From the NCBI GenBank assembly GCA_021786945.1, contig JAJYMK010000003.1, forward strand, positions 103,105 to 149,298: a stretch of 46,194 bases of DNA, in the 5' to 3' direction. The translations under genes were made by a program, and so were the position numbers. The notes beneath the pieces were generated by a model that ran no database searches, was not told the origin of the DNA, and saw only the letters and a program-made list of their open reading frames with translations. Shown here one piece after another: positions 32,500-33,285 of the stretch; position 1 is the first letter of the stretch, and each line of letters opens with the position of its first letter. The DNA comes from a bacterium (GTDB lineage Bacteria > Patescibacteriota > Minisyncoccia > UBA6257 > 02-FULL-45-10c).

Positions 32500-33285
32500 A
32501 TGAAAATATTAGCAACAGAACAATTTGAGAATAAGTTAAAATCTCAAGATGAATTTTACAAAAAAGCTTTTTATCAAGTTTTGAATAGTATCAAAAACTT
32601 AGATGCAAAATCCGTTGCTGGTTATTTGAGTATTCATTTTGTATTGGGCTCAGTGCAATTTTATAAAATTGGAAATTTAAGGCTATTCTTGAATTTTACA
32701 CAGGACGAACATAAAAATACCGTGCTCGTTTTCCTTGATTTAACTCTTAGTATTGCACCAATAAACACAAATAGAAATCCAAGGTTTAACAACCTAATAA
32801 ATCCAAGGTTTAACAACCTAATAAATCCAAGGTTTAACAATCTAATAAATCCAAGGTTTAACAACCTAATAAATCCAAGGTTTAACAACCTAATAAATCC
32901 AAGGTTTAACAACCTAATAAATCCAAGGTTTAACAACCTAATAAATCCAAGGTTTAACAACCTAATAAACCCAAGGTTTAACAACCTAATAAACCCAAGG
33001 TTTAACAACCTAATAAACCCAAGGTTTAATCCGAATTTTGTTGGTTTTTACTGCTACGACTTAAACTCTACCCCATACGAATTTGTTATACCGGAGTCTA
33101 ATCAACATATGTTATTATTTTTTGATTTTAGCGGAGAACAAACAAATTACGCCATAAAACACTCACAAAATGGTTACGTTGTGTTTAATTTAGACGGCGA
33201 GTGGATTGGTCATCTAGAATCAGATTCTAGAGATGGGTTTAATTATTTTGATTTAAATAATGAATGGATTGGATTTATAAAATAA
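32500..33285 (+). CDS. Unknown 261-aa protein: RelE/ParE-like N-domain, (NPRFNNLI)x10 octapeptide repeat tract, and a C-domain with 'EWIG' repeats.
   Basis: The ATG lies 2 nt after the upstream stop. The N-domain 'FENKLKSQDEFYKKAFYQVLNSI...FYKIGNLRLFLNFTQDEHKNTVLVFLDL' follows the RelE/ParE pattern (xYKI..yRLvy....d..vvvfl.v). The C-domain has 'FNLDGEWIGH' and 'FDLNNEWIGF'. Confidence 0.7.
   Translation: MKILATEQFENKLKSQDEFYKKAFYQVLNSIKNLDAKSVAGYLSIHFVLGSVQFYKIGNLRLFLNFTQDEHKNTVLVFLDLTLSIAPINTNRNPRFNNLINPRFNNLINPRFNNLINPRFNNLINPRFNNLINPRFNNLINPRFNNLINPRFNNLINPRFNNLINPRFNNLINPRFNPNFVGFYCYDLNSTPYEFVIPESNQHMLLFFDFSGEQTNYAIKHSQNGYVVFNLDGEWIGHLESDSRDGFNYFDLNNEWIGFIK
32776..33030 (+). repeat. 24-bp tandem repeat, 10 full units plus a 15-bp partial unit, in frame.
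   Basis: The unit is aatccaaggtttaacaacctaata, starting at 32776 and every 24 nt up to 33016. The only variants are aatcta in unit 3 and aaaccc in the last units. Confidence 0.97.

Follow-up and report, generated by a model that had tools for sequence, protein, structure and literature searches.

The window analysed here is a stretch of 46,194 nucleotides from a Patescibacteriota genome (GenBank assembly GCA_021786945.1, contig JAJYMK010000003.1, positions 103,105 to 149,298 of the forward strand). It contains a type I restriction-modification (R-M) operon in which one open reading frame (ORF) of 261 amino acids, ORF261, carries a near-perfect 24-bp tandem array. We propose, with a probability of about 0.65, that this array encodes a protein repeat of fixed length, eleven octads, that undergoes concerted evolution within a candidate accessory defence cassette, and that it does not act as a contingency switch. 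A preliminary description of the window, made from the sequence alone, had instead taken the array for a likely contingency tract, variable in copy number and comparable to the repeats that drive phasevarions.

An in-frame octad array within an R-M operon

Tandem Repeats Finder placed the array at 32775-33029 (period 24, 10.6 copies, 98% matches, zero indels, score 482), making it the strongest short-period array of the window by a wide margin. Read in codon register, positions 32776-33015 comprise ten 24-nt units, every one coding NPRFNNLI, and are followed by a degenerate eleventh unit (33016-33039) that codes NPRFNPNF. Only two sites vary across the array, both of them synonymous: a C>T change at 32841 in unit 3, and a T>C change that the last three units share at the third position of their first codon (32970, 32994 and 33018). 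Because the T>C change is common to three adjacent units, it is better understood as the mark of a unit duplication or conversion than as independent mutation. The longest pure run within the array measures 128 bp.

The preliminary description was accurate in its account of the tract itself. The near-perfect array, its two variant positions, its 8-codon unit that can slip without a change of frame, and its location in an accessory gene of an R-M operon were all recovered. The operon is of type I, and the gene lies between hsdM and hsdS, separate from both. Since the 24-nt unit is in frame and divisible by three, frameshift switching is impossible, and the tract is unable to act by frameshift on any product, including through the expression of hsdS or hsdM. 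The plus-strand reading frame of ORF261 is validated by its homologues. A minus-strand ORF at 32661-33008 was rejected as a mirror artefact.

Eleven octads are conserved across a large protein family

Homologues of ORF261 share its three-part build, in which the octad array lies between an N-terminal and a C-terminal domain. An exhaustive profile hidden Markov model (HMM) search of 1.84 billion representatives found 188 proteins at E<=1e-30 and, at the looser limit of E<=1e-3, 959. The family, hitherto uncharacterised, thus counts at least 959 clusters at the 50% identity level. One apparent member, a 3048-aa Ig-domain protein with IQTEIRPG repeats (P0075), matched the profile through periodicity only and was discarded.

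We counted octads in 168 family proteins, namely the listed best matches of the 959-hit search together with homologues identified earlier. Exactly 11 units were present in 57 of the 103 full-architecture proteins, and 10-12 units in 72 of them. The same number predominated in forms without the N domain (22/37) and in most forms with an alternative N domain of ~130 aa, within an overall range of 3 to 12. The 1027 distinct units gave the consensus N(85%)-P(96%)-[RK]-[FY]-N(91%)-x-x-[IL](90%). Family members are 25-40% identical, and the 11-unit mode holds across their differing domain architectures.

This conservation of number is independent of how uniform the units are. Approximately 83% of family members have diverged, non-uniform units, and the share of 11-unit proteins is equal in homogeneous (55%) and diverged (55%) arrays. 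At the DNA level, unit identity ranges over loci from 0.57, in L005, L017 and L018, to 0.98, in the window, with 11 units encoded in every case. Judged from these sequence comparisons, the octad array is an old protein feature with a conserved number of units, and the window carries the modal eleven.

These results divide the preliminary proposals. Of the two options given there, that the array had expanded recently or is kept homogeneous, the second stands. The repeat is not a recent expansion, since eleven units are kept across the diverged family, also in arrays whose DNA is not repetitive. On an evolutionary timescale the number of units does vary between family members, as the label of copy-number-variable implied, but a contingency switch is largely unsupported.

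Lineage-specific homogenisation of the repeat DNA

The closest relative of ORF261 (P0002) is a 75% identical protein of 263 aa, compared with 261 aa in the window, encoded on a 1.19-Mb chromosome-level metagenome-assembled genome (MAG; OY970181.1, loci L001/L013). A search for related loci with a narrow alignment gave only two genomes. The array of this relative likewise has 11 units, at 100% periodicity, evidence that arrays of such length are real. This array codes NPRFNNLI ten times by means of two alternating codon versions, which produce a perfect 48-bp period. The two repeats show 99% amino acid identity, yet the same codon is used at only 39% of conserved residues, as opposed to 58-60% in the flanking domains. 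A third lineage, represented by L002, has a 48-bp period of its own. Because the same peptide unit is written with different codons and a different period in L001, the homogeneity of these arrays points to lineage-specific concerted evolution under selection on both peptide and count.

Independent homogenised arrays were found in ~26 family representatives, most of them with 11 units. They differ in unit flavour at octad positions 3, 4, 6 and 7, as illustrated by NPKHNAVI, NPHYNKTL, NPTFNRAI and DPRINRTL. The simplest reading of these sequences is that uniformity would result from recurrent concerted evolution within each lineage, with selection acting on the octad pattern and on the number of eleven. 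Replication slippage, unequal recombination or gene conversion would allow one unit variant to sweep the array repeatedly, and selection would retain the octad peptide and its elevenfold count. The data suggest that length variants must arise by such homogenisation, yet rarely persist, copy-number variants presumably being removed for the most part.

The same pattern could also have an adaptive basis. In this alternative, which we regard as rather unlikely, the array forms a periodic recognition surface, and array-wide replacement alters the exposed positions 3, 4, 6 and 7 simultaneously in every one of the eleven turns. The ligand would itself be periodic, for instance a nucleic acid, a polymer of the cell envelope or a lattice protein of a phage. 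Its binding would be retuned by the replacement, and the count would set how long the footprint is. Homogenised arrays indeed differ at exactly these four positions, with N1, P2, N5 and I/L8 conserved at 85-96%; the unit count is conserved; and the core of octads plus C domain is paired with varied N domains and partners, as is often the case for immune sensor modules. However, the members with non-uniform units, which form the large majority, are presumably functional, which implies that uniformity is not required. The ligand is only hypothetical, and neutral concerted evolution accounts for the same pattern.

Unit number in public assemblies and reads

Comparison with relatives, which the preliminary description had recommended, yielded eleven as the modal number, and the short alleles that deviate from it coincide with the assembler used. 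L002 (JGI, 11 units) and L003/L004 (3 units) share 7.9 kb of 100% identical flank and differ by 192 bp, exactly the internal loop. Likewise, L012 (JGI), whose contig starts 16 nt before the array and covers at least 5 units, is identical to L009-L011 (3 units) at 1399 of 1400 nt downstream. Every inspected 3-unit version was a MEGAHIT k141 contig, whereas MEGAHIT contigs whose units have diverged at the DNA level retain 11 units. The short alleles are probably collapses, with real deletions possible, and we therefore dropped them as proof of variation, given that their flanks match those of longer alleles. More generally, comparisons of tandem-repeat number across short-read metagenome assemblies are risky, as the differences can be assembler artefacts.

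For the window itself, we examined five public metagenome runs (X1-X5) from two studies in which the locus occurs with flanks identical to the window. These runs are stored as Logan k=31 contigs that break at the array, so copy number was judged by the ratio of repeat depth to flank depth. Both repeat k-mer cycles were found in all five independent runs. A 31-mer model of the window predicts a mean multiplicity of 5.58 for the main unit cycle and 2.21 for the variant cycle of the last units. The observed ratios were 5.4, 7.2, 5.1, 3.9 and 5.7 (mean 5.5) for the main cycle, and 0.95, 2.9, 2.25, 1.5 and 1.0 for the variant cycle. This coverage check, also recommended at the outset, gave a depth over the tract that is not inflated and shows no gross collapse. 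The tract is not an assembly invention.

As a control for the depth method we used a 285-bp x 3 repeat of the same genome in the same runs. Array depth lay at 0.70-1.29 of expectation across runs and control depth at 0.58-0.97. Since the control scatters as much (method noise of 30-40%), the spread between runs was not taken as copy-number polymorphism, and its interpretation as differences of one or two units was abandoned. A unitig with the 32841 variant was absent from all five Logan contig sets; because loss of low-depth bubbles is expected in Logan contigs, its absence says little.

These data bear on the contingency proposal, according to which frequent slippage changes the unit number within populations and functionally different length variants are kept as a bet-hedging polymorphism. 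The array offers a slippage-prone substrate, being 98% identical at the DNA level over 255 bp, and the variant base common to three adjacent units testifies to unit-level duplication or conversion. The family range of 3 to 12 units, the alleles that differ between identical flanks (11 vs 3 and 5 vs 3), and the variation of depth ratios by run (main cycle 3.9-7.2, minor cycle 0.95-2.9) are also in keeping with it. However, the count is strongly peaked at eleven whatever the homogeneity of the DNA, with the window at the mode. The ORF261 protein is encoded on three public contigs, all with the same 261-aa product, and alleles of any other length were absent from 5.8 billion clusters. The checked short alleles all come from MEGAHIT k141 contigs, which take the minimal path, and the JGI contig L012 breaks just before the array; the control repeat has the same depth scatter; and a unit divisible by three provides no ON/OFF switching (PMC7383803). 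The contingency tract of the preliminary description is thus largely not upheld, and we consider a bet-hedging polymorphism improbable.

That the unit number is simply wrong, a short-read assembler having collapsed or mis-sized the repeat so that its match to eleven is coincidental, is very improbable: the 128-bp pure run is the minimal k=127 traversal and close to read length, the 32841 unitig was recovered from no Logan set, and relatives demonstrably differ between assemblies, but repeat-cycle depth matches the assembled multiplicity, the number falls exactly on the family mode, the protein is close in length to that of the chromosome-level relative, the three contigs agree, and bubble loss is expected in Logan contigs.

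Domain organisation and predicted structure of ORF261

AlphaFold2 modelling of ORF261 with a 15-sequence alignment gave a predicted local distance difference test score (pLDDT) of 84, with the repeat near 70. An alignment of 57 eleven-unit homologues raised this to a pLDDT of 93.5 and a predicted template modelling (TM) score, pTM, of 0.73. In the model, residues 1-83 form a beta-alpha-alpha-alpha-beta-beta-beta domain. Residues 90-180, which hold the octads, are predicted with a pLDDT of 91-98 and essentially no helix or strand by DSSP, and residues 183-260 form eight short antiparallel strands of 4-7 residues arranged in four hairpins (pLDDT 95-98).

Foldseek matched the N domain to RelE structures with a probability of 1.00: 3bpq_B (TM-score 0.71, root-mean-square deviation 2.6 Å), 2khe (0.70) and 1wmi_A (0.67), with deviations of 2.6-3.1 Å across the three. 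ParE and HigB structures were also matched, as were models of viral 'cytotoxic translational repressors' in the viral library, and the JGI annotation calls one homologue RelE. At the sequence level, 6 of 57 family members match Pfam ParE_toxin (PF05016) below threshold (best E 0.0022), and the window protein has no match to this family. The model thus suggests RelE/ParE membership at the level of fold only. The conserved residues of the domain are limited to K12, R61, D69 and D80, and in our reading of the alignment the repeat takes the place of the segment that corresponds to the C-terminal catalytic tail of RelE.

The repeat region had no analogue in the PDB or the viral library by Foldseek, in which RelE-type matches were confined to the N domain. 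The sole match of a PDB sequence-profile search, 6su9 (Plasmodium pyridoxal kinase), involves an Asn-rich low-complexity insert and was set aside as spurious.

The four-fold beta-flower has been described as four hairpins with [DNEQ]xxG at their tips (PMC10584680). By DSSP and sequence, the C domain of ORF261 fits this architecture in its eight strands, its four hairpins and its tip motif ([DN]xxG/W-x-G), the hairpin tips reading SQNG, LDGE, SRDG and LNNE. No member of the family alignment A5 matches the corresponding Pfam family, PF21784, at E<=0.1. A distant Tubby-like entry, 1zxu, was matched with a probability of 0.69 using the first model, and the PDB is without any beta-flower. We accordingly describe the modelled C domain as beta-flower-like and not as a member of that family. 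PADLOC, PHROGs and NCBIfam yielded no family for ORF261, its partner or ORF234, and we found no published description of the ORF261 architecture.

The host operon and the partner gene

The combination of hsdM, hsdS and hsdR in one operon (Table 1) identifies a type I R-M system, with Pfam and PADLOC E values of 1e-25 to 1e-159. The gene order is hsdM, a 126-aa ORF (the partner), ORF261, hsdS, a 234-aa ORF (ORF234) and hsdR. Spacers measure 2-4 nt from hsdM through hsdS, the partner stop lying 2 nt before the ORF261 start; hsdS overlaps ORF234, which is followed by hsdR after 10 nt. As called mechanically, the hsdS ORF begins at 33264 and overlaps ORF261, and comparison with L012 suggests a start at the ATG at 33288, 2 nt past the ORF261 stop. 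Tandem Repeats Finder detected no tandem repeat within hsdS (33288-34424).

Table 1. Features of the R-M operon and of ORF261 in the window
Feature	Position	Strand	Evidence and remarks
hsdM, type I methyltransferase	30655..32112	+	Pfam N6_Mtase 6.6e-64, HsdM_N; PADLOC MTase_I 2.9e-159
Partner gene, 126 aa from ATG 32117	32117..32497	+	two transmembrane helices; mechanical ORF starts at TTG 32096
ORF261, repeat-bearing gene	32500..33285	+	ORF, homologues, AlphaFold2, Foldseek
N-terminal domain, predicted RelE/ParE toxin fold, residues 1-92	32500..32775	+	Foldseek, sub-threshold Pfam
Array in codon register, residues 93-180 of ORF261	32776..33039	+	ten units plus degenerate eleventh octad
C-terminal domain, predicted beta-flower-like, residues 181-261	33040..33282	+	DSSP of model, weak Pfam PF21784
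hsdS, specificity subunit	33288..34424	+	Pfam Methylase_S 7e-25; PADLOC Specificity_I
ORF234, N-terminal transmembrane helix, between hsdS and hsdR	34411..35115	+	no Pfam, PADLOC, NCBIfam or PHROGs match
hsdR, restriction subunit	35126..37438	+	Pfam ResIII, EcoEI_R_C; PADLOC REase_I 1.1e-138

GC content is 0.27-0.30 in the cassette, compared with 0.36-0.37 in hsdM and hsdR. The AT-richness of the partner gene, ORF261 and hsdS fits an acquisition separate from that of hsdM and hsdR. On a coarser scale, GC falls to 0.29 over 32000-34000 from 0.37-0.42 around. In the L001 operon, a DUF3800 gene occupies the slot held by ORF234 in the window, indicating that the operon has a second, variable embedded position.

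Proteins of the partner family are 124-131 aa long, with two transmembrane helices, an invariant Glu in the first of them, and the cytosolic tail motif F-x-D-x-x-Y-C-x-A-Y-x3-4-C-L-P-E. The partner lies directly upstream in the window, L001, L002-4, L005/6, L009-11, L014, L016 and L018. In L015, the called upstream gene encodes 74 aa that align only with the C-terminal part of the partner, perhaps owing to a mis-called start. With this 74-aa product included, a partner precedes every RelE-type family member examined. No antitoxin family matched the partner. Its identification as a SLATT protein was rejected: the NCBIfam SLATT_4 match has E 0.014 and 15 bits vs a cut-off of 55, and 3 of 13 family members match, at a level similar to that of unrelated transmembrane families.

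Genomic contexts of the two-gene cassette

The hsdM-hsdS junction holds the pair formed by the partner and ORF261 in the window, L001, L009-L011 and probably L012. Between the window, L001 and L009, the cassette proteins show about the same degree of relatedness, the partners being 61-62% identical. The hsdM and hsdR products of L009 match their window counterparts at only 33-37% identity. Operon order also differs, being R-M-x-y-S in L009 and M-x-y-S-?-R in the window. The occurrence of similarly related cassettes in an unrelated operon indicates that the pair entered this junction independently at least twice.

Elsewhere, the pair accompanies genes of several other kinds. It lies beside ORF6N in L002, in a block with AAA_15/21, HSDR_N and ATPase_2 genes in L005, beside NYN, PDDEXK and Phd (antitoxin) genes in L016, and beside a Gp49/HTH pair in L015. 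In L014, a Sphingobacteriales MAG, it stands alone, the adjoining gene being read as RhuM-like. In L018 (logan SRR14875208_8730, 584-1776), the pair lies beside genes for a lambda-type large terminase (GpA) and a PyocinActivator-family protein, and these neighbours place the cassette in a prophage or phage-like element.

The octads also occur in other gene arrangements. In L007 (382-1556), the octads and C domain are joined to another N domain, of 132 aa, and the upstream gene is HEPN-like. In L017 (69-3672), a 175-aa form without the N domain lies directly upstream of a gene for a 1018-aa metallophosphoesterase-STAND NTPase.

The pair is thus found inside R-M operons, in toxin-antitoxin (TA) and defence islands and in a prophage, the distribution seen for embedded defence genes. 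These contexts, which include type I R-M operons of at least two unrelated kinds, suggest that the pair is mobile and make it a candidate accessory defence cassette.

A model for the cassette and points against it

In the model that we favour, the eleven Asn/Pro octads (N-P-[RK]-[FY]-N-x-x-[IL], 88 residues) would form a rigid module without helix or strand, joining the RelE/ParE-fold N domain to the four-hairpin beta-flower-like C domain. The module may serve as a rigid spacer or as a periodic surface of fixed length. ORF261 and its two-helix membrane partner would be a translationally coupled pair, and the cassette would provide accessory defence of the abortive-infection or TA kind. The octad module and the beta-flower-like domain might then represent the common sensing or targeting part, and the RelE-fold domain with the membrane partner the effector and control part.

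Several points weigh against this reading. PADLOC and PHROGs gave no match, and the putative defence role is derived from genomic context. The RelE-like domain is apparently without the catalytic C-terminal segment of E. coli RelE and may therefore not be an RNase. The structure of the repeat is a prediction, and AlphaFold can over-regularise repeats; the C domain scores below the beta-flower threshold (PF21784, clan CL0395, E 0.36, 11.7 bits vs a cut-off of 25). With respect to number, 45% of representatives differ from 11 units, of which perhaps only part is genuine. The copy number in the window rests on k=31 contig depth, to which low-frequency or sample-specific variants could escape, and depth deviates in X2 (1.3x) and X4 (0.7x), no more than for the control repeat. 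Finally, the 128-bp pure run corresponds to the minimal k=127 de Bruijn path through a longer array, so that an error of one unit or more is possible.

A bolder version of the model, which we find doubtful, would treat (N-P-x-x-N-x-x-I/L)x11 as an undescribed repeat fold free of helix and strand. It would act as a recognition surface of fixed length and regular period, or molecular ruler, in a new and widespread family of anti-phage cassettes of two genes that target the hsdM-hsdS junction of type I R-M operons, and these sensors would change specificity through array-wide concerted replacement of exposed residues.

Comparison with known systems

The simple sequence repeat (SSR) tracts of phasevarions, located in mod, hsdM and hsdS (PMC7383803), resemble the window array in being tandem repeats of an R-M locus with homogeneous, slippage-prone units. 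Unlike them, the window tract lies outside hsdM, hsdS, hsdR and mod, and its 24-nt unit stays in frame and does not shift it, with the family count kept at 11. The survey of SSRs in hsdM and hsdS explicitly leaves out units whose length is a multiple of three (PMC7383803). Finding a perfect in-frame minisatellite within an R-M operon does not by itself make it a phase-variation device.

The HsdS proteins of the type I systems EcoR124I and EcoR124II contain the TAEL repeat, likewise tandem and in frame, with a 12-bp unit in 2 vs 3 copies; its copy number sets a physical length and changes the spacer of the recognition site (cited in PMC7383803). TAEL, however, belongs to the coiled coil at the centre of HsdS, where it alters DNA specificity directly, whereas the window array belongs to a separate accessory protein, has 11 units and is predicted to be neither helix nor strand.

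RelE/ParE type II toxins share with ORF261 the fold of its N-terminal 90 residues (TM-score 0.67-0.71, three structures), and relBE shares the position of the toxin-like gene as the second of a tightly coupled two-gene unit. In contrast to these toxins, the RelE-like domain of ORF261 continues into a repeat of 88 residues and a beta domain, and its Pfam membership is below threshold; the canonical C-terminal catalytic segment is seemingly absent; and the upstream gene encodes a membrane protein with two transmembrane helices, not an antitoxin of the RelB, ParD, Phd or HTH type.

With the four-fold beta-flowers (PF21784; Durairaj et al. 2023, PMC10584680), the C domain has in common eight strands, four hairpins and [DNEQ]xxG tips. 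It differs in its sub-threshold Pfam score, and descriptions of known beta-flowers mention neither octad arrays nor RelE domains. A beta-flower domain is carried by the Cernunnos defence system, for which anti-phage activity has been reported (bioRxiv 10.1101/2024.07.02.601686).

Defence genes embedded in type I or Hma operons are represented by TgvAB (PMC11411939) and by HEC-01 to HEC-09, which include a RelE-domain protein, HEC-07 (bioRxiv 10.1101/2024.01.29.577857). The cassette resembles these systems and PrrC in being a two-gene insert in a type I operon that also occurs in defence islands and prophages, and it has a RelE-type domain as does HEC-07. It differs from all of them in having no sequence relationship, another architecture and an insertion point at the hsdM-hsdS junction, and its own defence activity is only inferred. 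PrrC, in the EcoprrI locus, is a further case of a defence gene embedded in an R-M operon.

Homogenised structural repeat proteins, such as ice-nucleation proteins and repeat-bearing surface proteins, evolve in concert, and Asn-Pro turn repeats exist, for example the NANP repeat of the Plasmodium CSP. The former resemble ORF261 in having internal units that are near-identical in DNA and in needing a given repeat length, and the Asn-Pro motif shared with the latter suggests stacked turns over helices or strands. Both are unrelated in sequence, and ORF261 differs in being cytoplasmic and linked to defence islands and in a count held much more tightly, at 11.

What sets the ORF261 family apart is a repeat number that stays at eleven among deeply diverged members while their DNA is homogenised time and again, together with a confidently predicted repeat structure without a solved analogue. 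Its modular build (RelE fold, octads, beta-flower-like domain and a partner with two transmembrane helices) and its occurrence in contexts typical of anti-phage systems are equally unusual. If shown to be a defence system, the cassette would represent a new R-M-embedded system and a tractable case of selection on repeat number alongside concerted evolution.

Other repeats in the window

The repeat that served as control in the depth analysis, at 1223-2076, is a 285-bp x 3.0 tandem repeat, 97% identical, with in-frame 95-aa units within a 1064-aa ORF (130-3324). Its k-mer depth, at 0.58-0.97 of the three-copy expectation in four runs, could be due to noise or to an allele with two copies.

A direct repeat of 129 nt, its copies 97% identical, occurs a short way downstream of the R-M operon at 37953-38081 and 39853-39981. 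Each copy starts with a 50-nt near-perfect palindrome (AAAAATGTTTCCATTATTCCCGCTA and TAGCGGAATTTATGGAAACATTTTT), and the two copies flank a gene pair at 38139-39827 encoding a ferric-reductase-like FAD/NAD oxidoreductase and a 127-aa ORF.

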